Source: a virus (lineage: Duplodnaviria > Caudoviricetes). From it: a DNA stretch of 64,000 nucleotides. Below, in pieces: positions 3,676-47,925 of this stretch; within the stretch, counting starts at the first letter, position 1; each line of letters opens with the position of its first letter. The stretch lies in IMG/VR virus record IMGVR_UViG_3300012007_000001, positions 1 through 64,000 of that record. One strand, 5' to 3'. The notes under the pieces were generated by a model, which ran no database searches, was not told the origin of the DNA, and saw only the letters and a program-made list of their open reading frames with translations. A program made the translations under genes and the position numbers.

Positions 3676-4071
3676 TTAGCTTCTGTTGTTAGGGTTGGCT
3701 TCCTTGAATCGAAGGTTAATCTTCACGATTTTGCTGCATACCGATGACTTGTATGTGTTGCTTTTGCCAAGATAACGCAGATGGTAAACTGTACCGTTGA
3801 CCGTCAAATTGACATTACCAGCAGCCTCTATGCTTCTGACGAAAGTATTGCACAGAGAACGCGCATTCGTGCCACCGAATGCAAATGGCAGCATGATTTC
3901 TCGGCTGGCCATCCTCGGCGGGATGTCAAGTTCTATATCGCCGTGTTCCGTCCTTACCGAGTTCGACGGTACGGGTTTCATTTCAACACCGTTTTCCAAG
4001 TTGTCGAGGAATCCCTCGTCAATGTGGGCATCTCCTATTCTGTCGCCCGAAAGTGTTAGTGACAATGCCAT
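3676..4071 (-). CDS. Putative distal tail (Dit-like) protein
   Basis: 131 aa directly after the tape measure gene; ends F.EANP like Bacteroidetes phage Dit proteins. Confidence 0.55.
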   Translation of the reverse strand: MALSLTLSGDRIGDAHIDEGFLDNLENGVEMKPVPSNSVRTEHGDIELDIPPRMASREIMLPFAFGGTNARSLCNTFVRSIEAAGNVNLTVNGTVYHLRYLGKSNTYKSSVCSKIVKINLRFKEANPNNRS

Positions 4072-4074
4072 ATC

Positions 4075-7000
4075 CTAAATGTTTTTAGTGTTCTTTTCGA
4101 TTTTCTCCAGTGTCTTTTTGTTCTCCTTCATAATCGGGAGCATTTCATCAGTAGTCGTGCGAATCATGTTCAGTTCCGAATAGCATTCAACGATATTTGT
4201 CAGCATATCATCAGCCACTCGACCAATACCTTCAACCATGTCTGCCGTCCGTGAAGCGGAAACACCTATGCCATTAAGGATAGGCACTGCCACGTTCATC
4301 TGTGCAGACACATTCTCGCCAGCAATCTGAACAGCCGTAAACCTTCCGTTCAACTCCTCGCCCAAATCCTGTGACATGCCAGCAAATCCCTTCTTGTCTG
4401 CCTCCTGCTTGGCAGGGTCTGTTTCCCATCCGAATGTATCACGCAGGTTGTCGCGTTCTGCAATGGCCGCTTTCACAATTCTGTCATAGTCATCCTTGAG
4501 GGCTTTCTGCTCTTCCTTTGTCAGTTCGTCGCCACTATCCATCGCAGCCGCAAAACTTGAATACCATTCCTCAAGTTGTTTCTTATACTTGGCAAGCATA
4601 AGACTGTTAATGACGGCATTCTGCATGTACTTTTCAAAGTTATCCGCAAAATCCTCTGCTGTGGAATCCATCTTTGCCAAAGCCTGCTCAAAATCGGAAA
4701 CAACAGTATCAAACGATGTTGCCGTAAGCTGTTCACGCGCTTCCTGTTCCAGCTGCTTGATTTCATCCTCAAGTTCGATGATTTGTTCAAGGTACTTGCG
4801 TGCTTCCTCACTAAGCGACTGCCAAAACTGGCTGTTGTTATATTTTAGTTCTTTCAGCTGTTCTACAGGAAGGTTAAACAGATTACTGATGTCGCCATTG
4901 TCTATATACTTCAATTCGTCTATACCAAAAAAACTCTTTTCGCTTGCGCCCATCCGCTTTGCAAGTTCTTTGTCGTACTGCCAAAGATAATTCCAGTTGG
5001 CATCCCTGTTGGCCTCATAACCGTTAGAATGGCTAAACCATCCTGCACCGTCACTTGCCCATCCTCGGTACATCTGAGCAGCGGCCTGTTGTGACTGGCG
5101 CAGGTAGTCAACAGTCTTATTCTGTATTTCCGTCACCTTTGAGCCGTAGGCTTCTTTCATCAGCGACTTTTCATACTCAAGGTTTTCTTTCCATGTGTCA
5201 AGCAGGTAGCCCCACTTTTCAACGGCAGCGTCGAAGTTTTCAGTACCGCCACCGAAGATGCCGCTCATGTCGAATCCGAAGAGTTTACCTACACCGCTGA
5301 CAACGCCGCCGACGATGTTTCCTACACCTTCCACAATATTTGCAATAAGATTCGGGAGGTCTGCAAGTATCGTCTCGACAACCTTTGCAATCTTATTCAG
5401 CAGGTCATTGATGAACTGTGCAGGGTCATCACCCAAAGCGTCGATGATTTGTAGGATAGCACCGATGATGCCGCCAATCTTTCCACCAAGTTCATTCAGT
5501 GACTTGCCTACGCCATCAGAACCTTTCGCAAGGCTTGTCACAAGTTTGCTGATTCCGTTGGCAAAACCGTATAGGGAGCCGCTGGCCATCTCATTCACAT
5601 AGTTGGTAAAGTTTTGAATGCCGTTTGCAGCCTTTTCGGTATTATCTGCCAGTTTCTTCTTTGCCTCTTCCGACTTATCCTCTGCATCCGTCTGTTCATC
5701 AGAAGTGACATTCACCGCATCATTTGCGGCATCCAAAACAGCCTGTGCAGCTTCAATCTGTTTCTTTGAGCCGCTCTTCAAGGCCGTTTCCATATCACGC
5801 TCTGCATCACGCAAATCCTGAACGGCAGCATTGTGAGCCTCCTGCGCGGCCTTTAGCTTCTTAATGGAATCTTGATAATCCTTTACGTTTTTGGATATTT
5901 CGCCCCATATACTGAAATTGAAAGCACTGGTACTGTTGCCGCCTGTCTCTTTCCGCAGTTCGCTACGCAGGTCTGTGTATGACTTCTTATCCTTTGCGTC
6001 CAGTTTCTTGAACTCGGCGGTCTGCATGTATTCTTCGACCTTCTTCAAGGTTTCCTTTGCAACATCACTAAGAACATTGCCGACACCTTCAAACGCAGTA
6101 CTCCAGTCGATACCCATTGCCAAGTTCTGAGCATTGACGCTTGATAATTGTGACTGTTTCTGACGTTCCAGCATAGCTTTCTTGCTGGGGTCTTTCTCTT
6201 CTGCAATCTTCTTGTTGTATGACTGTTCGATGGCAAACATCTGCTGCTGAACCGTTCCGAACTCACGCAGATAGTCATACAGGCTCTCCAACCTCTGCTG
6301 GTTGATGTTGTTCAATCCTTCACGGTATTGTCTTTCCGCTTCTTCGACGAACTTCTTAGCCGCATCACCATCGCCCATGTCGGATGCTGCAATCGCAACT
6401 TCTTTGTAGGCAGATTCCAGCAACTCCATCTTTCTCATTGGTGCATCTGCACTGCTTTCAATCTTCTTGAAAACAGAAATCAGGTTATCAAAGTATTTCT
6501 CACTTTCAGAAATACGCTTTGAATTTACACCAAGCATATCTTCATCCGTAAGCTGCACATTCCTGTACTGCCCACTGGTATAGAATCCCTTTATCGGATT
6601 ACCTTTCTTATCATTGCTGGCGGCTTCAATCTTCTTATTCAGGACTTCGCGCTCCTCGTTGTCAAGTTCTGCCATGCGCTTTTTGTGGTTCAAACGCATC
6701 TGAGCCAGTTCCTTTTCAGCACCGTCATCCATTTGGTCGATGACCGCCTGCTGCTGTAGCAACTGGTTCTGTATTCTCGTCCGTTCAGCTTCCTGCTCCT
6801 GTTCAATCTGCCGTTTCAGGATTTCATCGGGTGAATTTCCCTTTGTCCTGTTACCGCTTCCAGCATTACCGCCCTGCCATTCTTGAACGCCGACGGCCTT
6901 AACCGCCTGCTCCTGCATTTTCACTGCCTGCTCAAGTCCTTTCGTGAGGTATCCGACACGCTTCTCCGTTTCCCTGTTCAGCGCATCTACATTGTCTTTC

Positions 7001-38091: not shown

Positions 38092-38508
38092 TCAGGTTTG
38101 CGGAAGTTCGGTGTCATACACAACCTTGCCCGCATAGTTGCTATCTTCTTCTTCGCCGCTGAGATGCGCTTTCAGCCAGTCGCAGCAGCATCCAGCCCAC
38201 CCGATAAGGTAGCAGAACGATTCGGAAGAGTCGCCACAAATGGGCTGGTCAATGTACTCAAAGACATCTATGCCCAAATGACCGCATTCATGCACGATGT
38301 TGATGGTCTTGATGGCCTTCACGTCGCGGAAGCGGAACAAAACGACATTATCCTGCGCATTCTTCGTGACACGGCAGGCCGTCATAGCAGGGCAGTTGGA
38401 CTCCAGCGGTTCGCAGTCAAGTTCAAAGAAGCCACGAATGGCATCCGTACCGACACAGGCCATGAGTCGGAACGGATAGAAGTGCTGTTCAAATTCGTAA
38501 ATCTTCAT
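38092..38508 (-). CDS. Hypothetical protein with an HExxH (zincin-like) motif
   Basis: IVHECGHL...ESFCYL. Confidence 0.55.
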   Translation of the reverse strand: MKIYEFEQHFYPFRLMACVGTDAIRGFFELDCEPLESNCPAMTACRVTKNAQDNVVLFRFRDVKAIKTINIVHECGHLGIDVFEYIDQPICGDSSESFCYLIGWAGCCCDWLKAHLSGEEEDSNYAGKVVYDTELPQT

Positions 38509-39926
38509 TATTCTGTAGGTTCGTTAGGTTGCTGGACTGGCTTCTGTAAAGCGGCCTTGCGCTCGGAATCGGCCAGTATCTTCTCTATTTCTTGCTGGGG
38601 CGCATCGGTGATGGCCAGCATCGTAACGGCTGTTTCCAGTGATACAAGCCCACGGTCATACAGTTCGCCGATAGACTTCCATAAACGCTCCTTATCCTCT
38701 GCAAACGGCTCTGCATATTCACCCTTAATCTTCAAAGCGTCGATTTCCGTCGCCATTTCGGGATGCAGCAGCTTCAGCAGCGCAAGTTTCAGATTCTTGT
38801 CACGGTCGAGCAGCGGGTCGTATGTTTCCTTCAAGTTGTCGCGCTTCATGTAGCCAAGTATCAACGCCCTGCGCAAAGCCTCTCCGCTTAGTGTTCCAAG
38901 CCCCTTCATCTTCTCATACGAGAAATCAGGCGTGAAGGTGTCATTCAGGATGGAATCATGCAGGTTGTCATGCTCATCCCTGCGCGAATCGCTGTCTGAC
39001 GGCGGGTTGACATAGCCGAAGCGTGATTTCTCTCCAGTCAGCTGAATCATCCTTCCGACGGTCTCGCCATTCTTGAGGTACTGCAAAACGTCTGCGGTTG
39101 CCTCTGCCAGCGGGTCGGCGAAATAGTTGTTGTTGTCAGCGTGCTTGGAATCGTTCATCTCCTCACGGCTGATTCTTCGCTCCGCGCCATCCCATGATTT
39201 ATTCTGATAGAAGTAAATCACTGGAATCTTGCCGAGGATGTTGTCATACACCGTGACCTGCCAGCCTACGGCAGAACGCTGGCACTGGAAATAGTAGTCG
39301 GCAGTCCAAATGTCATAGTGCTGCACATGGTTTCCGTTTTCCTTCAAGGTATATCCAAGCGCAAAGGCCACCATGTTCTCATACTGGTCAATCAGCGGAT
39401 GCAGCCTGTAGCCCTTGGAATACGCGGCCACGAAGTTATGGTATTTCAGCACACCGTTCTCTTGGTACAGCTGATAGACAAGTGCCGATTCCAGTTCCGA
39501 GCCTGCCAGTCGCTTGCACTGCCTCCACTTGGCATGAAAGCGCGTGTCATCCAGCATGTCCTTATACAGCTGGAATGCCCTGTCAGAGCCCTCCTTCTTC
39601 TGCCACTTCGGGGGATTGGCCAACAGGAAGAAGAGTTCCACCTCGTTGATGTACCTCTGACGGGTTCGCGGCAGCTTCTCCGTCTGATACGGCTCTTGCC
39701 CTTCTCTCCACTTGTTAGGGCGGTTCATTACATCGTGCGTCTGCCAGTTGTATTCACGAATGGCATTCGTCACAGCTAATTCGTGGTCTTGCATCAGGTT
39801 GATAGCGCGAGCCACATCATTCTCAAGAATGTAGGCGTACAGTTCACGCAATACGCCTGCACTGTTAAGTGTGACACCCCTAAACTGCGTCATCACCTGT
39901 AACTGATAATCGTCCAATAATGGCAT
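38508..39926 (-). CDS. Portal protein (SPP1 gp6-like); start revised to MPLLDD
   Basis: About 470 aa after TerL; N.LGKIPVIYF, TPDFS..GTLSGEALR, VSLETAV. Confidence 0.88.
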   Translation of the reverse strand: MPLLDDYQLQVMTQFRGVTLNSAGVLRELYAYILENDVARAINLMQDHELAVTNAIREYNWQTHDVMNRPNKWREGQEPYQTEKLPRTRQRYINEVELFFLLANPPKWQKKEGSDRAFQLYKDMLDDTRFHAKWRQCKRLAGSELESALVYQLYQENGVLKYHNFVAAYSKGYRLHPLIDQYENMVAFALGYTLKENGNHVQHYDIWTADYYFQCQRSAVGWQVTVYDNILGKIPVIYFYQNKSWDGAERRISREEMNDSKHADNNNYFADPLAEATADVLQYLKNGETVGRMIQLTGEKSRFGYVNPPSDSDSRRDEHDNLHDSILNDTFTPDFSYEKMKGLGTLSGEALRRALILGYMKRDNLKETYDPLLDRDKNLKLALLKLLHPEMATEIDALKIKGEYAEPFAEDKERLWKSIGELYDRGLVSLETAVTMLAITDAPQQEIEKILADSERKAALQKPVQQPNEPTE

Positions 39927-39939
39927 AGTTCTTTCCGTT

Positions 39940-41295
39940 TTATTTGATTGCAATCTTACTATTCTTCTTTGTCACCTTTAGATTCTTCACTATCTTACCC
40001 AGCAGCTTGCCGAGCGTGTAGTAGCGGGCAGCGTCGATGGCATGGTTCCACTTGTCAACTGGCACGTTGATATAGTTGCCATCCTTATCCTTATCCCAAA
40101 CGTAGTTGCGCAATTCCTCATGCAGGTCAACAGAATCTTCCGTAACGAAGATGTCATCATAACTCTGCATCTTGTCAATGCCAGCCACGATTGAGCCATT
40201 CGGCTTCTGAACGGGGTATATCATTATTCCACCAAGAGCGATTTCGTCGATGAGTCGCGGGTCTGCACTATCGGCGAACACCATCAATCCGCTATACGGC
40301 TTCAGGAACTCTATGATGTCCTTTGACAGCATTCCAGTCCTGTAGCACAGCAGTTTTATATAAAGCCTGTTATCCCATATTCCGCACATCACGATGGCCG
40401 TTGGGTCATGCGTATATCCGAAGTCGATACCCAATGCAACGTGCTTGCACTGCGTCGGGAACTCCTTCACGATGCCCCATTTCTTGAACACAGCACCTTC
40501 CGCAACATCAGCCCACTGCCCCATGACGATGTGCGCATATCTTTCGGGGTCTGTTCGCTTCATGGTTTCCACGTTCTCGATGAACTGCGGGGAAAGGTTC
40601 TCTATGTTGTCGAGGTATGTCGTATGGATATGAAGCACGTCGGGATGCGTCGAAATCTGAACTGGTACACCGTCGAAGTATTCAATCCTGTGCGTGTCCT
40701 TTATATATTTCTGATAGATGAAGTGTCCGCTGTCCGTCGGGTTCATCACGATGATGATGAGGTTCTGAATGCCCAATGTACGGATGGAAAGCATGATTTT
40801 CTCAAAGTCATCAAACGAAGTCCACTCTTCCGCTTCATCACAGACGAACACCGTCAGGCCGTGGATTGATTTCAGCTTTGCCGTCTGATTGCCCGATGAG
40901 GTCTTGATGCCTCGGAACATGATATGTGAGCCTGTCTGACGGTTGATGACATCCTTCTTTGTGGCACGGAAATACTTCTGCGTACCCTCCATCTCTATCT
41001 TCTCCAAAAATTCGGGGATGACAGAAATATCGGCTGACACCATCGTATAGCGGGCGCAAAGAATCTGATGTGCAAGCAATTTGGCTTCATCACGCGGACT
41101 CGGCACGGCTTCAAAGGTCAGGCGTTCCAAGAAGGTTTCGACATTGAAAGACTTACCGCTTCCACGACCTCCAGTGACAAGCACAATCATCTTTCTGCCG
41201 TTGTTCAGATAGAGAGGATGGTAAACAGGCTGCACCTTGATACCCTTGCGCACCTGCTTCCGTAATACCTTCCGTCTATCTGCTACCCTTGTCAT
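39940..41295 (-). CDS. terL: Terminase large subunit (PBSX-type)
   Basis: GGRGSGKS Walker A, VCDEAEE Walker B, GIDFGY..DPT, ADSADP, NHAIDAARY. Confidence 0.95.
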   Translation of the reverse strand: MTRVADRRKVLRKQVRKGIKVQPVYHPLYLNNGRKMIVLVTGGRGSGKSFNVETFLERLTFEAVPSPRDEAKLLAHQILCARYTMVSADISVIPEFLEKIEMEGTQKYFRATKKDVINRQTGSHIMFRGIKTSSGNQTAKLKSIHGLTVFVCDEAEEWTSFDDFEKIMLSIRTLGIQNLIIIVMNPTDSGHFIYQKYIKDTHRIEYFDGVPVQISTHPDVLHIHTTYLDNIENLSPQFIENVETMKRTDPERYAHIVMGQWADVAEGAVFKKWGIVKEFPTQCKHVALGIDFGYTHDPTAIVMCGIWDNRLYIKLLCYRTGMLSKDIIEFLKPYSGLMVFADSADPRLIDEIALGGIMIYPVQKPNGSIVAGIDKMQSYDDIFVTEDSVDLHEELRNYVWDKDKDGNYINVPVDKWNHAIDAARYYTLGKLLGKIVKNLKVTKKNSKIAIK

Positions 41296-42017
41296 TCTTC
41301 TTTCTGTACGTCTGATTCTACATTGTTCCAGTCATCCGTCATTTCCGCATCTATCCAGTGAGATACTGGTATGCCCTGCTTGACGTTCTGCGGCAATTCT
41401 TCTTCATCCTCGATTCCGCGCTGGATTTTCCTCCAGTTCGGGTCATGGTGAAACAGAAACGTCGATAGTGCCTGAATGTTCGGTGCAAGTTCCGATTCCG
41501 TCTCTTGAACTACGGCCTTATCCGTCAGTACCGTTATGCCAGTACCGCCGCACATTGGGCATTCCTTATCGTTTCCGTTACAGATGCAACGCGCCTGCAC
41601 ATACCTTGTTGTAACCGACTTAATCTTCCTTCCACCAATGGCCGCACGGTAGTATGCAGCCCTTGCAACACCGATGGCCTTTTCCCGCGCACGGGCTAAG
41701 ACGTGTGCGATGTGAGCGGAGCGCACGGCATTTTCTGATGCTGTCCACCTGTTGTAGCTTCCGTTTTTCATGTGGCTGAACACCTCGCGTGAAATGTCGA
41801 GTTGTGCCGCAATCTCTGTGTCAGTCATCCCCTGTCCTGCAAGCTGGTCAATCTTCTTGAAAAAGATTCCTTCGGGGTCGTCGTAGTCGTATTTGGCTTT
41901 GGAGTCGGGAACCTTGACGAGCGGCGCAGATGTCTTGCGTCGCTTCGTAGCTGCCTTTTTCACCGTTTTCTTCTTCGGCTTGGCTGCTGCTTCTGTCTTT
42001 TTCTTCCTTTCTGCCAT
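41292..42017 (-). CDS. terS: Terminase small subunit with a Cys4 insertion
   Basis: HTH (GMTDTEIAAQLDIS), ELAPNIQALSTFL..HDPNW, immediately upstream of TerL. Confidence 0.75.
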   Translation of the reverse strand: MAERKKKTEAAAKPKKKTVKKAATKRRKTSAPLVKVPDSKAKYDYDDPEGIFFKKIDQLAGQGMTDTEIAAQLDISREVFSHMKNGSYNRWTASENAVRSAHIAHVLARAREKAIGVARAAYYRAAIGGRKIKSVTTRYVQARCICNGNDKECPMCGGTGITVLTDKAVVQETESELAPNIQALSTFLFHHDPNWRKIQRGIEDEEELPQNVKQGIPVSHWIDAEMTDDWNNVESDVQKEE

Positions 42018-42023
42018 GATGCT

Positions 42024-42866
42024 TTACTCCAGTATGTCGATTTTATCCATAAGTTCGCGCCCGTCCACGAATTTGCTGTTTGGGTCGAATCCCAGCTGAA
42101 TGAGTGCGCCCTGTGTCTCTTGCGGGTTTGGGAACGATACGATGAAATACGACAACATGCCGCCGTCGTTGTTGGTGTCGGATTTCTTGTTTATGCGGTC
42201 TTTGACCTTCTGAATCTCGTTGTGGCGGGCTATCTGATTTTCGGGCGTGTCATTGTAGAAGTCAACGCTCCTGTCAATCTTCGTGTTTTCCTCACTGCCG
42301 TGTGTGTTGGCATCCACCTGTGCAAGATGCTCGTTGTCCTGTGTCAGATTGCCTTTGCGCCAGTCGTTAGCGGGGTCTGTCTCTTCGGGTATGTCGGTGA
42401 TGTTCCTGAACTCGTCATCGTCAATGGGCGTTATGCCAAGCATCTCCAAATCGAAGTCATTGAAGCCTGCCGCCGTATGGTCTATCTTCCTTAGTACGTT
42501 TCTTAACAGGTCATCGTCGAAGTCGCCCTGCACAGCCTTGTTGTTAAGGAACATGTTCTGCTCCATCTCCTCCTTTTCGGGCAGATGGACTACCTCCACG
42601 CGGATTTCATAGTCATTCTCCTTGGTGTCGGGATTGTAGCGGTTCACCTCGTCGATTATCTGCACCTTCTGATGACCGCCGACAAGGTTTCCTGTATCTT
42701 CGTTCCAAATGATGCCGCCCATAAGCCCCAGCCGTTTAAGGTTGGCTTTCAGAGCCTTTCTTGCATCTTCGGTAATCTTGCGGGGATTATACTCGGCCAG
42801 CTTTATCTGACTGCGAAGGATTACCCTGCTTTCCGCTTGTTGAATCTTGCTTTTCTTCACTGCCAT
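42024..42866 (-). CDS. ParB/Srx-like N-terminal domain protein
   Basis: LAEYNPRKI..LKANLKRLG..IIWNEDTGNLVGGHQ. Confidence 0.85.
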   Translation of the reverse strand: MAVKKSKIQQAESRVILRSQIKLAEYNPRKITEDARKALKANLKRLGLMGGIIWNEDTGNLVGGHQKVQIIDEVNRYNPDTKENDYEIRVEVVHLPEKEEMEQNMFLNNKAVQGDFDDDLLRNVLRKIDHTAAGFNDFDLEMLGITPIDDDEFRNITDIPEETDPANDWRKGNLTQDNEHLAQVDANTHGSEENTKIDRSVDFYNDTPENQIARHNEIQKVKDRINKKSDTNNDGGMLSYFIVSFPNPQETQGALIQLGFDPNSKFVDGRELMDKIDILE

Positions 42867-42870
42867 AACC

Positions 42871-43647
42871 TTACTCCTCCTCCAGTTCTATGTCATCCGA
42901 CTGCAAGTTTTCAGGCATTTCCGTCTTTGTGGCGATACCGTGCTCGTAGTCGAAAATAAGTTTTTCGCAATAGGGGAACTCCTGCAAGCACCGCTGATAG
43001 TCACGCGGGTAGTTCTTTCTGAGAAACAGCAGATGGTCGAGGTCTATAGCCAACCCCTGCGACACATTGCCCTTCACGTATTCCAGCGGCCTAATCAGAG
43101 ACTTCGCCTTGATGTACTGCAACACCTCGCCGTTAGTCCACACGGCCAGCGGGTAAACCATGCCCTTCTTGGTCATGTATGTACCGTTCTGCTTCTTGAA
43201 CATCAGCAGGCGCATACGCTTCATGTAGCCGTCCACGCCCTTCATGCCGCTAAAGGCATAGGGTACGCCCGTTTCCTGCCTTACCTGTTCCTCTATCTGT
43301 CCGATGGTACGCATACGCAGGTGGTTCGGGTCTTTCTTCGGCAGCAGATAGCGGGGGTCGGGGTCACAGAAGAATCCTCCTGCCTTGAATGCGTCATGCT
43401 GAAAGTGCAGGATTTTCCGTACCTCCACATTCCTGTAATGCTTCTCAGCCCAATCAATGTAAGGCTGAACATGGTCGCAGTTGTTCACAAGGTACATGTA
43501 ATAGCAGATGACCTTCGGGAATGTCGTTGCCAGCATCTCCAGCAGGGCGATGCCGTCCTTGCCGCCAGCCGAATAGAACAGTACGGCGGTGTCTGTCTTT
43601 TCGCGGATGCCCTTGATGATGGCAATTGTCTCTGAATACTTGCTCAT
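42871..43647 (-). CDS. PP-loop / PAPS-reductase-family protein
   Basis: LFYSAGGKDG PP-loop; GMKGVDG..RMR; YPLAVWT..EV..YI. Confidence 0.8.
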   Translation of the reverse strand: MSKYSETIAIIKGIREKTDTAVLFYSAGGKDGIALLEMLATTFPKVICYYMYLVNNCDHVQPYIDWAEKHYRNVEVRKILHFQHDAFKAGGFFCDPDPRYLLPKKDPNHLRMRTIGQIEEQVRQETGVPYAFSGMKGVDGYMKRMRLLMFKKQNGTYMTKKGMVYPLAVWTNGEVLQYIKAKSLIRPLEYVKGNVSQGLAIDLDHLLFLRKNYPRDYQRCLQEFPYCEKLIFDYEHGIATKTEMPENLQSDDIELEEE

Positions 43648-43667
43648 AGTTCCGTTTATGTAATTTT

Positions 43668-44336
43668 TTAGTTTGAGCCGCCCAAAGCTGTACGCAAGGC
43701 AGCTGCTATGGTGTTCCCGCTTCCTCGGCGCAATACCCTTTCGCGGTCACTCATCATCCTATCCCAATCATCGTATGTCTTAACCCTGTCAAGGTTGATT
43801 TCCCTGCTTGGGTTATAGCTTCGCATCATTGCCGACAATCCTTTTGGCAGGGTCATGGCAACGACGGGAAGGCGTGTGCGCCCATCCCAATCAGACGGTG
43901 CTAAATCGTCATCCCATTCTACTTTTCCGATGGCTTTAGCACCATATTTCGCATACATATTCTGTAATCCACCACCATAGCAATCCAGCTTTCGGCCACC
44001 CCTTGCAGAAGCAAATGCCATGATGTTGGGCATCCTTCCGCGTGTCCTGCTGAAAACGGCCTCTACATTGCCGTCACTTGTTATGGCGAGTCCTGTCTTG
44101 TGGTCTTTAGAAAGGTAATAAGCCGTGCCACTGTTACGGTTATTCCTGAACTGTTTCTTTGTATGGGTATCAACCATCCAGCCGTGCCTGTTTTTCTTCT
44201 TGGCATAGTTGATGGCGTTTTTGAAAGCCCTTGGCGTTGCACGCTCAAATTCTACGTGAGAATGCCGAATACCCTTTCTTGTTAGGGCATTCTCGACACG
44301 CTTGTTTGCTTTTTCAATATCGCTTATGTACCTGAC
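43668..44336 (-). CDS. 222-aa basic protein with a GNAT-like domain; proposed GTC start (VRYISDIEK...)
   Basis: The frame is open for 53 codons upstream of the track ATG (44177) to GTC at 44336, directly after an in-frame TGA; G.AI..DG....VF..GGRKLDCY..L..Y...W....AP.DW pattern. Confidence 0.65.
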   Translation of the reverse strand, partial: VRYISDIEKANKRVENALTRKGIRHSHVEFERATPRAFKNAINYAKKKNRHGWMVDTHTKKQFRNNRNSGTAYYLSKDHKTGLAITSDGNVEAVFSRTRGRMPNIMAFASARGGRKLDCYGGGLQNMYAKYGAKAIGKVEWDDDLAPSDWDGRTRLPVVAMTLPKGLSAMMRSYNPSREINLDRVKTYDDWDRMMSDRERVLRRGSGNTIAAALRTALGGSN

Positions 44337-44349
44337 TCAGCCGTTCCGA

Positions 44350-44547
44350 TTACATTGTCAAAATATCAGCCATCAATTCAGGGCTGCTATAATCCATGTC
44401 ACTATCCAGCGAATCGTCGCTTGGGCTGTCTGCCAGTTTTCTTGCCTCATCCTCTGTCAGGTAAGGCTTGCCGTTCTCCTTGATTTTGCAGAGCTCCTCA
44501 AAAAGACGCTGGCGATACTCAGCTATCTGTTCTTTTGTATGCTTCAT
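44350..44547 (-). CDS. 65-aa acidic-tailed protein with its own operator-overlapped promoter
   Basis: ORF track; TATCTTTG at about 44567-44574 and operator-like site 44570-44592. Confidence 0.7.
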   Translation of the reverse strand: MKHTKEQIAEYRQRLFEELCKIKENGKPYLTEDEARKLADSPSDDSLDSDMDYSSPELMADILTM

Positions 44548-44714
44548 TGTTGTTCATTTAATAGTGCAAAGATAAAGCAAATAAATTGATTTACCAAATA
44601 TTTCTCGTTATTTTTTGTTGCATATCACTTTATTTAACTCTTCCGCTAAATCAGAATGGCCACCACCATCATTTTGCTGACGGCGATGGCCATGATGTCG
44701 GCTCAAGGCAACCT

Positions 44715-44969
44715 TTAGCCCTCAGAGCCTGCGGCAGCACGAAGGGCGGCAGAGCGCAAGGCTGCACCACGAACACCACGCGCACGCATAGCGGCTACGT
44801 TCTGACGTGCTTGTCGGGCGAATGCCACACGAAGGTCTTGACGACGCTGTTCACGGTTTCCCCAACCTGCACGGCCTTCCGCATAGCGGCCACCATTTGC
44901 CAGTCGGCGACTACCTGCACCGTTCACGTTTGACGTGACACCAGTGATTCGATTGATTCTGTTTCTGAC
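44715..44969 (-). CDS. 84-aa Arg/Ala/Gly-rich protein; proposed GTC start (VRNRINRITG...)
   Basis: The frame is open for 14 codons upstream of the track GTG (44927) to GTC at 44969, directly after an in-frame TGA. Confidence 0.65.
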   Translation of the reverse strand, partial: VRNRINRITGVTSNVNGAGSRRLANGGRYAEGRAGWGNREQRRQDLRVAFARQARQNVAAMRARGVRGAALRSAALRAAAGSEG

Positions 44970-45001
44970 TCAGCATTCAAATTAAAGGGTTCTACATTAT
45001 G

Positions 45002-45412
45002 TTAGTTGTCTGAATGGGCTTCCTGTTCCCCGTCGAAGATTTCACAGTTCTCCGTCTGCAATACTTCGCCGAGTTCATACTGCATCTGCGTAACATAGTA
45101 GGTCTCGCCGTTGTCAACGAATGTAAGCGGCTCACCAGTCTTTTCGTCATCCATCTGAACGACCTTAATCCCGATGACCTGTACCAGCAGGCGGGGGGCA
45201 TTCTTCTGACGGCCATTGATAAGCTGCAAGGCATCATAGCCCACAACCTCGACATCGCTTGTGCCGTCGCCGTTGTCCTTTTCCACCAAATACTGCTTGG
45301 CGTTACGCGGGTAAACAAATCGGTGCTCGACCTTCTGCTCACCCTTCAAGATTTTCTTGAAACTGTCGCGCTTGATTTGTAGCGTCAGTACATCTAATCC
45401 TTCTAAATTCAT
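45002..45412 (-). CDS. ASCH (PUA-like) domain protein
   Basis: LTLQIKRDSFKKILKGEQKVEHR, a variant of the GxKxxExR motif, then YDALQLING. Confidence 0.75.
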   Translation of the reverse strand: MNLEGLDVLTLQIKRDSFKKILKGEQKVEHRFVYPRNAKQYLVEKDNGDGTSDVEVVGYDALQLINGRQKNAPRLLVQVIGIKVVQMDDEKTGEPLTFVDNGETYYVTQMQYELGEVLQTENCEIFDGEQEAHSDN

Positions 45413-45445
45413 TTTAATTCCGATTTAATTGTTACTATAATATTG

Positions 45446-45518
45446 TTGCGGGAGCAGGGCTCGAACCTGCGACCTCCAGTAAGTCAGACTGTTAAGCTAC
45501 CAACTGCTCCATCCCGCG
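45446..45518 (-). tRNA. Atypical tRNA: initiator (fMet) body with a GAC (Val) anticodon; CCA not encoded
   Basis: CGCGGGA UG GAGC AGUUGGUA GCUU A ACAGU CU-GAC-UU ACUGG AGGUC GCAGG UUCGAGC CCUGC UCCCGCA A; C1xA72, A11-U24, U37/U38. Confidence 0.88.
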
Positions 45519-45526
45519 ATTTTCGG

Positions 45527-45599
45527 CAAAGTTACACATATTACTTTTGTCATGTGAATCTATGCCTACATTATATTTCACCAATTTATATTAGTGAAA
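45527..45599 (-). promoter_or_regulatory. Putative late promoter 4 (tRNA-packaging operon)
   Basis: TAACTTTG 45527-45534; TTTCAC-N12-GTGAAA 45576-45599; 41-bp gap. Confidence 0.75.
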
Positions 45600-45651
45600 G
45601 AATCGCGGTATTTTGCAGCTGTTTCACTTCCAATTATTCAATCATCTTGCT

Positions 45652-45699
45652 TTATATTTCACCCAGCGGGCGCATTTCTTTCTGTATGACGTAGTACAT
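45652..45699 (-). CDS. 15-aa mini-ORF (MYYVIQKEMRPLGEI) or gene remnant behind a full early cassette
   Basis: ATG sits at the canonical distance from the leader motif (45736-45748); promoter 45756-45763; operator 45802-45824. Confidence 0.4.
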   Translation of the reverse strand: MYYVIQKEMRPLGEI

Positions 45700-45823
45700 A
45701 TTATATTCGCCTTTCTTTATCCTGTCGGCATCAGGTCTAAACGGTTTTGTCTTTGCAAAGGTACGAAATAATATTGAAACTACCAAACTTTTTTTGCAGA
45801 AAAATAAAGCAAATAAATTTATT

Positions 45824-46759
45824 TTACCATTCCGCAAAGATGTTATGACTGGCATCAACGACTTGCTCGGAGTACTGAACACGGCAATCCACCTTGTTTC
45901 TGATGCTGTCTTTCCAGTATATCTTAGACTTCGGGGCTTTCGCTGCCACAATCTCCTGCACGTCATTGACGAACTTCACTATGCCGTCAAGCGTGATGGG
46001 CTTCTTGTTGTGCTTCTTGCCGCTTTCCAGCCCTATCTTATAGACATCGCAGAATCCCAATGATTCTTTTATCATCTCCAGCGAATCATCCAAGTCTATC
46101 ACAGGCTCGATGCTGGCAAAGGTATGAACGCCGTATTCCGCGCTAATTCTCGCCATTGCATCCACACGCTGCATATTCGTTGACGCATTCGGCTCAAGGT
46201 CATCCCTGCCTGTCAGCGTGAAACCGACGCACAGGTTCTTACCGCCATTGACCAGCAGACGATGACCACCGATTCCGTACACCCACTCAGAGCGTTTCGT
46301 CAGCATGGTAACTGGCACTGGAGGCAAATCGTTTCTTCTGCTTCCGTCCTCGTTACATCCCAACGCGATATAGGCACACCGCATGAATGTATAGAAGGTG
46401 TCTAACGGCTGCTGTAGGCACGGGTCACTGCTGAACGTGAAGAAGATTCCACGGCCATCTACCATGATTCTATCCCTGTACCTGTTCAGTTCCTTCTCAA
46501 ACACTTGCACGGCCTTGTTACATCCGACAATGAATGCGAGTTTTCTTGAAGCGTCGCAGTCATTCTTGAATTTGACATCCTTTGCCGTCAGCTGAAACTC
46601 CTTTTTCAGTTGAGGGATTTTCTGACCCATTCCGTGACCTAACACACCTTTCTTGCAGTAGCAATACTCACAGTCATTTGAACACCCGACAAAGATATTT
46701 GCCGCCCAAGGAGCGTATTCACGGGCTTTGCCCGATGGCTGATAAATAATCTTTCCCAT
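45824..46759 (-). CDS. Radical SAM protein (start revised to MGKIIYQP)
   Basis: GCSNDCEYCYC (CxxxCxxC), SSDP, LTK, TLTG..LEPNA, SIEPVI. Confidence 0.85.
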   Translation of the reverse strand: MGKIIYQPSGKAREYAPWAANIFVGCSNDCEYCYCKKGVLGHGMGQKIPQLKKEFQLTAKDVKFKNDCDASRKLAFIVGCNKAVQVFEKELNRYRDRIMVDGRGIFFTFSSDPCLQQPLDTFYTFMRCAYIALGCNEDGSRRNDLPPVPVTMLTKRSEWVYGIGGHRLLVNGGKNLCVGFTLTGRDDLEPNASTNMQRVDAMARISAEYGVHTFASIEPVIDLDDSLEMIKESLGFCDVYKIGLESGKKHNKKPITLDGIVKFVNDVQEIVAAKAPKSKIYWKDSIRNKVDCRVQYSEQVVDASHNIFAEW

Positions 46760-47925
46760 ATTACTGAAACTTAGAAAAATCCTTCTTGAAAACGACAAAC
46801 TTACCGTCAGTCCGTGCCTTGCACTTGCCAATCTGCGCACGCACAGAATCTACTTCGCAATGCTTCTGCTTCCTGACCACCTTTCCGTGAAAGAAACATC
46901 CACGGCAGAACGAGTCAGCCTCCTGAACTTTCATACGAACACCGTCACAGGTGAACACATCATTAATCGGCCTTTCCATATCACTTACCTTTTTCATCAT
47001 AGGGCTTGCCGCAAAACGGGCAGAATTTCACCTTGTCATCCAAACCGATATAGCGGTTATGCTTTGAATAGTTCCCGCTCTTGGTCTTTGGCCTGAACCA
47101 TCCAGTTACATATATCCGACCGTCAGGCGATACATGTTCCACACCGCCGACACCGTACTGCTTGCACAGTTCAGCCTTAATCTTAGCTACACAATCACAC
47201 ATATTCTATTGTTTCTTAAATGGATTCTGAAACACTAACTTTGTCTTTTTTATAAAATCCCTTCCAGCAGTTCCTTTCGGTGCTGTCTCTTCATACCAAA
47301 CGACTCTCCGCAATAGGAGAGACTTTGAATTGATATGCAACCAGCACCGATGCTCCTTTGACGGGCTACAACATTCAAAGTCACAACAGCATTCATCACG
47401 CCAAGGGTTATGTATGGCGATTCCAAACACTTGCAAGAAAGACTGAATACGCGCAGAAAAAGCAATGTTTTTCCGAAACGCTGTCTTCCAATAATATTTT
47501 CTGTAATACCAAATCTTTTTCATACAATCTATTTCTTATGTCTGTTGGCATAGATTTTCATGGCCGTCTTTTTGTTCCGCGCCATGATTTTCTCGCCGTG
47601 GATTACAAACTCATGCTCTTGCATGTTCACACCATACATCTGATGATTCCGCGCCTTTTCCTCTTCGGTTAGTTCACGGCCTCCAGTTGCTCTATGCCTT
47701 CTGCGTGTGCCAGTATCAAATATTGACGTATCACCAGCACCAGCCACAGCCGCCATCATCAGCGTAGCGGCCATCAGTTTGCTAATCTTTCTCATTTCGG
47801 TTCCTCCTCTGCCTTTTCAGGTCGCCATTCATTGAAGAATCCGCATTCACGGGTGGCGTTTTCATGGTTGCCAAATCCCATCTTGTGCAAATCCAGTTCC
47901 TTGAACTCGACCATCTTTCTTACAT

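Follow-up and report, generated by a model that had tools for sequence, protein, structure and literature searches.

The window analysed here is the first 64 kb (64,000 nucleotides) of a 119,237-bp phage genome of the class Caudoviricetes (IMG/VR record IMGVR_UViG_3300012007_000001). On its minus strand, between positions 42,024 and 45,412 and directly ahead of the terminase genes TerS and TerL, lies a module that we now define as a four-gene unit encoding an ASCH protein, a small basic protein, a PP-loop protein resembling PAPS reductase and a ParB-like protein; an odd, initiator-like tRNA with a GAC anticodon stands at its head. Our best explanation of this locus has three parts. In a large family of Bacteroidota siphophages, a conserved module heads the late operon on the packaging side; the operon houses a natural, evolving orthogonal translation-initiation system; and the module serves in packaging-linked DNA modification or processing. 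Taken as a whole, we give this explanation an even chance of being right. The initiation system we consider quite probable, whereas the role of the module, argued from analogy and synteny, is a tentative proposal to which we give somewhat less than an even chance.

The module is independent of the tRNA

Roughly 240 phage and prophage loci, all from Bacteroidota and counted with redundant contigs, have the core of ASCH, small basic protein, PP-loop, ParB-like, TerS and TerL genes, and the position of the module directly upstream of TerS and TerL is constant across them. We sampled such loci in three ways. Searching IMG/VR with the PP-loop protein gave 80 loci (58–98% identity), all of which carried the ASCH gene, the small open reading frame (ORF), and the PP-loop, ParB and TerL genes. 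Searching IMG/VR with the tRNA pattern alone gave more than 104 loci; every one with enough downstream sequence had, at +12 to +40 nt, an ORF that was ASCH-like or of ASCH size, followed by a PP-loop gene (down to 30% identity), ParB, TerS and TerL, so the tRNA was never seen without the module. A further 80 prophage loci were fetched with the PP-loop protein from species-representative genomes of Bacteroidales, Flavobacteriales and Sphingobacteriales; the few metagenome-assembled genomes labelled outside Bacteroidota are probably misbinned. Whether or not a tRNA is there, nearly every locus has the small basic ORF placed between its ASCH and PP-loop genes. Among cultured phages, Bacteroides phage BS-TP2 and Riemerella phages carry the module. 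The same module is found as gp52–gp55 of BS-TP2 and gp34–gp32 of Riemerella phage RAP44, and PP-loop and ParB-like pairs beside terminases are already annotated, and uncharacterised, in cultured phages; both carriers are open to knockout, BS-TP2 on Bacteroides salyersiae and RAP44 on Riemerella. As an IMG/VR query, the RAP44 PP-loop protein recovered only three loci, contig searches with distant PP-loop representatives returned mostly very short contigs, and a megablast search of 50,697 phage records with the region gave zero matches.

The sequence-only reading of this DNA had proposed, as the first of its options, that maturation or modification of the special tRNA is the task of the three proteins (ASCH, PP-loop and ParB-like). 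It had listed co-occurrence of the genes with the tRNA among the checks, and frequent occurrence of the trio with neither tRNA nor GUC-start ORFs among the outcomes that would refute it. That outcome was obtained: the module proved common both without the tRNA and without GUY starts. About 41 of the 80 prophage loci had the tRNA directly upstream of ASCH and about 30 had a promoter-like box alone; in the tRNA-less loci the small basic ORF usually starts with ATG, and whole-genome pattern searches of three tRNA-less hosts did not find the special tRNA. No tRNA is encoded by the RAP44 genome, which still carries ASCH-like, PP-loop, ParB, TerS and TerL genes and a small basic ORF that is unannotated and starts with ATG; RAP44 nests among tRNA-bearing clades on the PP-loop tree. 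The ENA contig L198 has the layout of RAP44, again with the tRNA absent, and in locus L250 a decayed tRNA remnant accompanies a small basic ORF that has gained an ATG. Outside Bacteroidota hosts, Lactobacillus phage LR1 has a PP-loop/ParB pair, and Pasteurella phage Pm86 a PP-loop gene, adjoining the terminase with no initiator-like tRNA nearby; a tRNA-like fragment upstream of the LR1 PP-loop gene lacks a D arm, has a GAA loop and does not belong to the initiator type. On the PP-loop tree, built quickly from this single gene, the tRNA switches state approximately 20 times and provides 9–11 independent contrasts between presence and absence. Because the module is frequent without the tRNA, the trio is not a tRNA-maturation set. 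The distribution across these genomes shows that the module is independent of the odd tRNA, which has repeatedly disappeared or changed in lineages that keep the module.

Anticodon of the tRNA and start codons of the operon

The link between the tRNA and the module is nevertheless real, and it runs in the opposite direction: by comparison of the loci, the anticodon of the tRNA heading the operon co-varies with start codons inside the operon. The window tRNA (45445–45518, minus strand; ARAGORN Val(GAC); Rfam tRNA, 49.8 bits) has a C1xA72 mismatch, an A11:U24 pair (read from the sequence), a CGCGGG acceptor stem and the anticodon loop CUGACUU with U37. Its unpaired 1:72 position and A11:U24 pair identify it, as judged from sequence, as an initiator-derived body with a remodelled anticodon arm. 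Neither a CAU anticodon nor three anticodon-stem G:C pairs were found in it; the stem pairs are A-U, G-C and U-A. Relatives keep the 1:72 mismatch with differing bases (C1xU72, C1xC72 and U1xU72), and some tRNAs of the CAU/AAC lineages (L215, L217 and L018) have U1 opposite A72. In L215 and L217 an ordinary-looking CAU initiator with three G:C pairs occupies the same operon position and the small basic ORF starts with ATG, a state that is probably ancestral. Variant tRNAs in L019 (7240–7320), L020 and L021, upstream of ASCH, and in L238 (4360–4435) combine conserved acceptor and anticodon arms with D and T loops that are rebuilt and lack GG and TTCGA; ARAGORN misses them. An exact 50-nt tRNA pattern had zero matches in IMG/VR, because the nearest relative, L001, differs by one anticodon-loop base.

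Initiator-bodied tRNAs with an 8-nt anticodon loop occupy the same position in L225:4331–4407 (GCGGCAUU), L226:4310–4384 and L248:4358–4434. L226 and L248 have the loop GUGGCUUU in common on stems that are different yet compensated, and the small ORFs of all three loci have ATG. The complement of GUGGCUUU in L226 lies inside an ATG-started gene and was taken as chance.

The start codon of the small basic ORF was tallied over 241 loci with 155 distinct PP-loop sequences. A GAC tRNA occurred with GTC in 159 loci and with GTT in 1; an AAC tRNA occurred with GTT in 26, with GTC in 0 and with ATG in 6; CAU occurred with ATG in 2, CGU with ACG in 1, and tRNA-less loci had ATG in 18. The remaining 8 loci had GTC and no detected tRNA, and non-canonical tRNAs, tRNAs elsewhere or cut contigs explain all of these but L200. 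The conserved N terminus of the small ORF has no canonical start; it opens at GTC in phages with the GAC tRNA and at GTT in those with the AAC tRNA, usually directly after TGA. In some lineages CGA or AGA replaces TGA before GTC or GTT, which makes GA, not a stop codon, the conserved element. Among five independent GAC/AAC contrasts, the start codon shifts in the same direction in four to five and in the opposite direction in none. An Alistipes prophage (L253) extends the pattern to a third anticodon: its tRNA (4063–4135) reads CGU, and both of its small basic ORFs (about 4580–4970) open with ACG, in the contexts ACACGAG, which is complementary to six of seven loop bases, and AUCACGAG. Across 43 distinct start sites the consensus is GCUGA-GUY-R (G at −2 in 41 of 43, A at −1 in 42 and a purine at +4 in 39); in the loop UURACUU, U38, U37 and U33 might be the partners of these positions.

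Two genes of the window have such starts. The Arg/Gly-rich small basic protein (84 amino acids; 44715–44969, minus strand; called GUC-gene 1) opens at the GTC at 44967–44969, directly after TGA. Reading it as a read-through extension of ASCH was ruled out, given that the frames differ and that relatives show CGA or AGA in place of TGA. A GNAT-fold protein (222 amino acids; 43668–44336, minus strand; GUC-gene 2) opens at the GTC at 44334–44336, again after TGA. Its homology to phrog_2563 and to relatives with an ATG start begins ahead of its first ATG, at residue 54; the relatives with an ATG start align to the 53 residues before it, and its homologue in AAC-tRNA phages opens at GTT. The 119,237-bp genome contains just two copies of the 10-mer GCTGAGTCAG, one at each of these GTC starts, and the remaining GAGTCR sites of the genome are on the non-coding strand. 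Private start codons would explain two genes that standard gene callers shorten or miss. In the GenBank record of BS-TP2 (L081, PQ571275) the tRNA (4280–4352) is unannotated and gp53, the small basic protein (4812–4997), is annotated at an internal ATG, 24 nt downstream of the GTC at which the conserved frame opens.

Several observations weigh against private initiation. The three G:C pairs needed by E. coli initiators are lacking in this tRNA; with five pairs, a sign test cannot fall below p of approximately 0.06; four AAC-tRNA phages (L014, L175, L230 and L251) have an ATG-started small ORF; and L275 combines a GAC tRNA with a GTT start. In L016 a second small basic ORF, a paralogue at 2275–2460, opens with GTT alongside a GAC tRNA and would need a G:U wobble. 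On the other side, in older work the E. coli initiator tRNAfMet(GAC) reportedly starts translation at GUC with valine. With an engineered E. coli initiator tRNA(AAC), translation begins at GUU with valine, and the protein retains formyl-valine (bioRxiv 10.1101/2021.05.25.445580). Since engineered AAC initiators work in E. coli, private initiation is chemically plausible without helper proteins. Taken together, the co-variation strongly supports the view that the tRNA is a private initiator whose anticodon pairs with the start codon of the small protein and, in this phage, with that of the GNAT protein as well; the tRNA is probably charged with valine.

We propose that the initiator-derived tRNA (GAC, AAC or CGU) would be transcribed as the 5′ end of the late operon and would start translation at GUC, GUU or ACG in the GCUGA-GUY-R context, probably with (formyl-)valine or threonine. 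Such initiation would be limited to the small basic protein of the module and sometimes its GNAT protein, the synthesis of which would thereby be gated on the phage's own tRNA. Like the engineered i-tRNA(AAC), the phage tRNA has an initiator body with a non-CAU anticodon. Unlike the engineered initiators, the phage system is natural, lacks the three G:C pairs and has U37/U38 facing a conserved GA before the start; moreover, the phage tRNA evolves (GAC, AAC, CGU, CAU and 8-nt loops) and serves one or two genes. It is apparently the first natural counterpart of engineered non-AUG initiator tRNAs and, if our interpretation is true, a new viral way of choosing which of its own messages get read.

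Module proteins and their possible action

The PP-loop ATP-pyrophosphatase (258 amino acids; 42871–43647, minus strand) matches PAPS_reduct (PF01507) at 30.3 bits against a cut-off of 22.5, and its L146 orthologue does so at 45.9 bits. The motif S-A-G-G-K-D (S26, G29, K30 and D31) is invariant, as is a downstream Asp/Arg motif, G-x-K-x-x-D-x-x-x-x-R; by sequence the protein belongs to the PAPS-reductase/CysD/DndC superfamily. No cysteine is invariant in the PP-loop alignment (A3); C48 is invariant within the Bacteroidota set alone, and LR1 and Pm86 lack it. The CysH-type C-terminal catalytic cysteine (ECGLH) of a true PAPS/APS reductase is not present. Given the lack of a conserved cysteine, the chemistry would be neither PAPS reduction nor Fe-S-based sulfur insertion; judged by its residues, the protein is neither a true PAPS reductase nor an Fe-S enzyme of the DndC/TtcA type. 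In PADLOC the L146 protein gave only a weak QueC match. A profile search put the family at 1614 clusters at 50% identity, and a search for longer, fused forms found none, which is weak evidence. The predicted complex of the PP-loop and ParB-like proteins scored 0.08 against a mark of 0.32. PAPS-reductase-like genes of gut phages are often taken as sulfur 'auxiliary metabolic genes'; this family, which has no redox cysteine and is tied to a ParB-like gene and a terminase, more probably acts on nucleic acid than in metabolism.

The ParB/Srx-like protein (280 amino acids; 42024–42866, minus strand) matches phrog_9353 (1.7e-68) and phrog_620, 'ParB-like partition protein' (6.6e-18). Its N-terminal domain, the first ~150 residues, matches the N-terminal part of the phage 'DNA methyltransferase' phrog_498 (2.7e-19) and PADLOC MTase_II (9.3e-10 and 8.9e-14), and is, on these profile matches, homologous to the N-terminal domain of phage ParB–methyltransferase fusions. 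The domain carries the motifs Y-N-P-R and G-(G/S)-H-Q-(K/R), the latter at the aligned position of the canonical GERRxR motif, which is not there; the C-terminal domain is of no recognised kind, and a family search detected no helix-turn-helix family; partition ParB has one that binds the centromere. By its motifs, then, the protein does not appear to be a canonical CTP-binding partition ParB.

The first protein of the module (136 amino acids; 45002–45412, minus strand) is predicted to have the PUA-like β-barrel fold of ASCH proteins (PF04266). Its AlphaFold2 model has a predicted local distance difference test (pLDDT) score of 88.8, and the top Foldseek matches are ASCH proteins with a probability of 0.95–0.99. 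The VIA all-against-all aligner gave Z scores of 7.8 to 3iuw (root-mean-square deviation 3.3, 78 amino acids aligned), 5.8 to PH0355 and 5.5 to ZmASCH, with YTH and YqfB below 3iuw. A Pfam search of the window protein gave zero hits, and its profile had no meaningful match to PDB sequences. The positional orthologue in the divergent clade of L146 reaches 24.5 bits against the Pfam ASCH cut-off of 21.2, other orthologues 16–19 bits, and the signature GxKxxExR reads G-E-Q-K-V-E-H-R here and G-K-K-T-x-E-x-R in relatives. In almost every locus with a tRNA, 12–40 nt separate the tRNA from the ASCH gene downstream of it, and tRNA-less loci have ASCH too. For RAP44 gp34, homology to ASCH is supported solely by a weak Pfam ASCH hit (E 0.0056) and a common N-terminal motif; hhalign of the ASCH profile against gp34 gave a probability of 1%.

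The 222-residue ORF is predicted to have the GNAT fold (AlphaFold2 pLDDT 84): all of the ~50 Foldseek matches listed are GNAT/GCN5-type acetyltransferases or their complexes, mostly with a probability of 0.9–1.0 (lowest 0.63) and E values of 1e-3 to 1.5e-2. A Pfam search of it gave zero hits. It is an accessory member, which other phages place elsewhere within the module. In L231 a gene of the N-formylglutamate-amidohydrolase (FGase) family (1936–2616; PF05013, 2.5e-24) lies between ASCH and GNAT, an arrangement of one branch of the module, and L234, L240, L266 and L279 have similar layouts; this gene is of interest in that valine-initiated proteins retain the formyl group in E. coli. The Arg/Gly-rich protein is a core member, with 84 amino acids here and 47–70 in most relatives; across 112 distinct relatives the median Arg plus Lys content is 21%. 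A family search found no family for it and no fold was assigned; for this protein and the GNAT-like one, ESM Atlas returned no named relative.

ParB-like proteins pair with nucleic-acid-modifying enzymes in DndB/DndC and DpdB/DpdA, and BrxP is a PAPS-reductase-family enzyme that makes phosphorothioate DNA (PMC10853773, PMC12839542, PMC12914056). Like the phage module, DndB/DndC, BrxP (BREX type 4) and SspD involve a PP-loop ATP-pyrophosphatase of the PAPS-reductase superfamily, and these systems act on DNA; in Dnd, as here, the PP-loop gene adjoins a ParB-superfamily gene. The module differs from all three in being phage-encoded, beside the terminase, with an ASCH and a small basic protein. 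In DpdA/DpdB (7-deazaguanine in DNA) and in phage ParB–methyltransferase fusions, the ParB-like part serves, or is fused to, a DNA base-modifying enzyme; by contrast, the catalytic partner in the module is a separate PP-loop enzyme, neither a tRNA-guanine transglycosylase nor a methyltransferase, and G-(G/S)-H-Q-(K/R) stands in place of the canonical GERRxR. A further parallel is IbrA/IbrB from E. coli prophage regions, a pair of neighbouring PAPS-reductase-like and ParB-like genes that stem from mobile elements and are biochemically uncharacterised; IbrA is larger, with an extra domain, and the IbrA/IbrB context is regulatory rather than terminase-adjacent. An NCBIfam search of the module PP-loop protein gave no IbrA-type match.

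By these analogies, the PP-loop and ParB-like proteins most likely act jointly on phage nucleic acid, probably DNA, around packaging. The ParB-like N-terminal domain would bring the PP-loop enzyme to DNA, as in the phage methyltransferase fusions, and the enzyme would adenylate a DNA oxygen (a base carbonyl or phosphate), or a carboxylate for amine transfer. The ASCH protein might bind, read or trim the modified nucleic acid, with GNAT and, in some relatives, FGase-type amidohydrolases as optional extras that add or remove acyl groups. A number of results count against this scheme. PADLOC models of DndC, BrxP and SspD gave zero matches to the window PP-loop protein at E ≤ 0.01, and no conserved pair corresponds to the Cys dyad or Fe-S cysteines of those enzymes; DndA, DndD and DndE were not seen at the module, although no search was aimed at them. 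Pfam ParB_N scores 15–22 bits in relatives, below its cut-off of 26.3, with nothing for the window protein, and the N-terminal-domain profile matches solved ParB, Spo0J and Noc weakly (E 0.02–0.3). Finally, the small basic protein is conserved in the module like the enzymes and mostly ends in glycine, so that the substrate could be this protein rather than DNA.

That last possibility, in which the enzymes act on the Arg/Gly-rich protein, for example by adenylating the glycine at its C terminus so that it can be amidated or joined to DNA or to some other acceptor, corresponds to the proposal in the sequence-only reading that the GUC-start proteins become attached, and it has some appeal. The ORF lies between ASCH and PP-loop genes whether or not the tRNA is there, 89 of 112 distinct copies end in glycine, most often as SGG, and the PP-loop relatives NAD synthetase and QueC adenylate carboxylates. 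However, a counterpart of the small protein is not evident in LR1 and Pm86, which do have the PP-loop gene, the module lacks an E1-like or ligase partner and no fold can be assigned to the peptide; we think this reading distinctly unlikely. The constant position beside TerS and TerL would also suit a packaging accessory without chemistry, in which the ParB-like protein binds or nicks pac/cos or loads TerS, the PP-loop protein is an ATP-driven partner and the small protein condenses or escorts DNA. TerL stays at ~65% identity while the PP-loop protein drops to 30%, from which we infer that the block was inherited together with the packaging genes, and ParB/Srx proteins include DNA nickases and NTPases (PMC12839542). 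Yet PP-loop enzymes work as adenylating synthetases or as reductases rather than as motors, the catalytic motifs are invariant, and the ASCH and GNAT/FGase accessories better suit modification chemistry. We regard such an accessory as unlikely, if a shade less so than a protein substrate.

RNA targets seem to us much less probable. The module could act on other host or phage RNA (rRNA, mRNA or host tRNAs) in a late takeover of translation: ASCH proteins include the RNase ZmASCH and the N4-acetylcytidine (ac4C) amidohydrolase YqfB, both among the fold matches, a GNAT protein is present, and the operon is tied to a translation device. Against this improbable option, the ParB-like N-terminal domain is otherwise fused to DNA methyltransferases and the module sits in the packaging block. 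Least probable, by a little, is maturation or modification of the special tRNA, with the trio working on the anticodon loop as TilS or TtcA does. With few exceptions, loci with a tRNA place it 12–40 nt ahead of ASCH; TilS, TtcA, MnmA and ThiI are PP-loop enzymes; tRNA is a frequent ligand of PUA-like folds; and the likeness to TilS and TtcA extends to the PP-loop ATPase fold and a gene near a tRNA. But the Pfam match of the module protein is PAPS_reduct rather than ATP_bind_3, it has no CxxC and no cysteine for thiolation, the module often persists without any such tRNA, and engineered GAC and AAC initiators function in E. coli with no added factors (AAC: bioRxiv 10.1101/2021.05.25.445580). 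Under packaging-linked DNA modification or processing, the reading that we favour, the four-gene definition, the absence of conserved cysteines and the breadth of the family would make the module a new variant of Dnd/Dpd-type logic.

Locus layout and neighbouring genes

The gene order and the family assignments made in the sequence-only reading held up: all of the named genes are present on the minus strand in the order given, and the ASCH, PAPS-reductase-like PP-loop and ParB-like assignments are borne out by structure, Pfam and PHROG matches. From the 5′ end the order is initiator-like tRNA(GAC), ASCH, Arg/Gly-rich ORF, acidic ORF, GNAT, PP-loop, ParB-like, TerS (41292–42017; phrog_309, 1.2e-16), TerL (Terminase_3; 39940–41295) and an SPP1-type portal protein (38508–39953), the last two assigned by Pfam and PHROG profile matches. 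Eight nucleotides ahead of the 5′ end of the tRNA stands the box TAACTTTG (45527–45534, minus strand), which fits TAnnTTTG and which we take, by the Bacteroides promoter consensus, to be the Bacteroidota −7 promoter box; the arrangement of box and tRNA is conserved in relatives, where the box is TACCTTTG, and it may serve as a promoter. The acidic ORF (65 amino acids, ATG start; 44350–44547, minus strand) has its own −7-like box, TATCTTTG, upstream and was found solely here and in the 98% relative L001.

Just upstream of the tRNA, a radical-SAM-like gene (45824–46840, minus strand; CxxxCxxC, Pfam below cut-off) is confined to this phage and L001 and so falls outside the conserved module. A conserved gene of 165 amino acids lies ~700 nt upstream of the tRNA in many loci (for example, L226:3615–4127); its M-C-I-I start resembles the N-terminal Cys of an N-terminal nucleophile (Ntn) hydrolase or amidotransferase. 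Further tRNA genes, Gln(UUG) and Glu(UUC), are located beyond the window at C1:78157–78228 and 78448–78520 of the genome. The first 50 bases (C1:1–50) are repeated at 118347–118396, ~890 bp from the contig end, which points to terminal redundancy or to an overlap in the assembly of a circular or permuted genome.

Public runs holding this phage are animal-gut metagenomes, partly ruminant. RNA-library contigs from three studies span the region from the tRNA to the 5′ end of the PP-loop gene; their starts, strand and level are not readable and they were excluded as proof of expression. In a bovine-gut RNA library, one 2452-nt contig at a depth of 33 (window 43427–45902; flanks at a depth of 5 or less) extends over the 5′ end of the PP-loop gene, the GNAT gene, the small ORFs, ASCH and the tRNA, a hint that a single transcript may cover the 5′ part of the operon.

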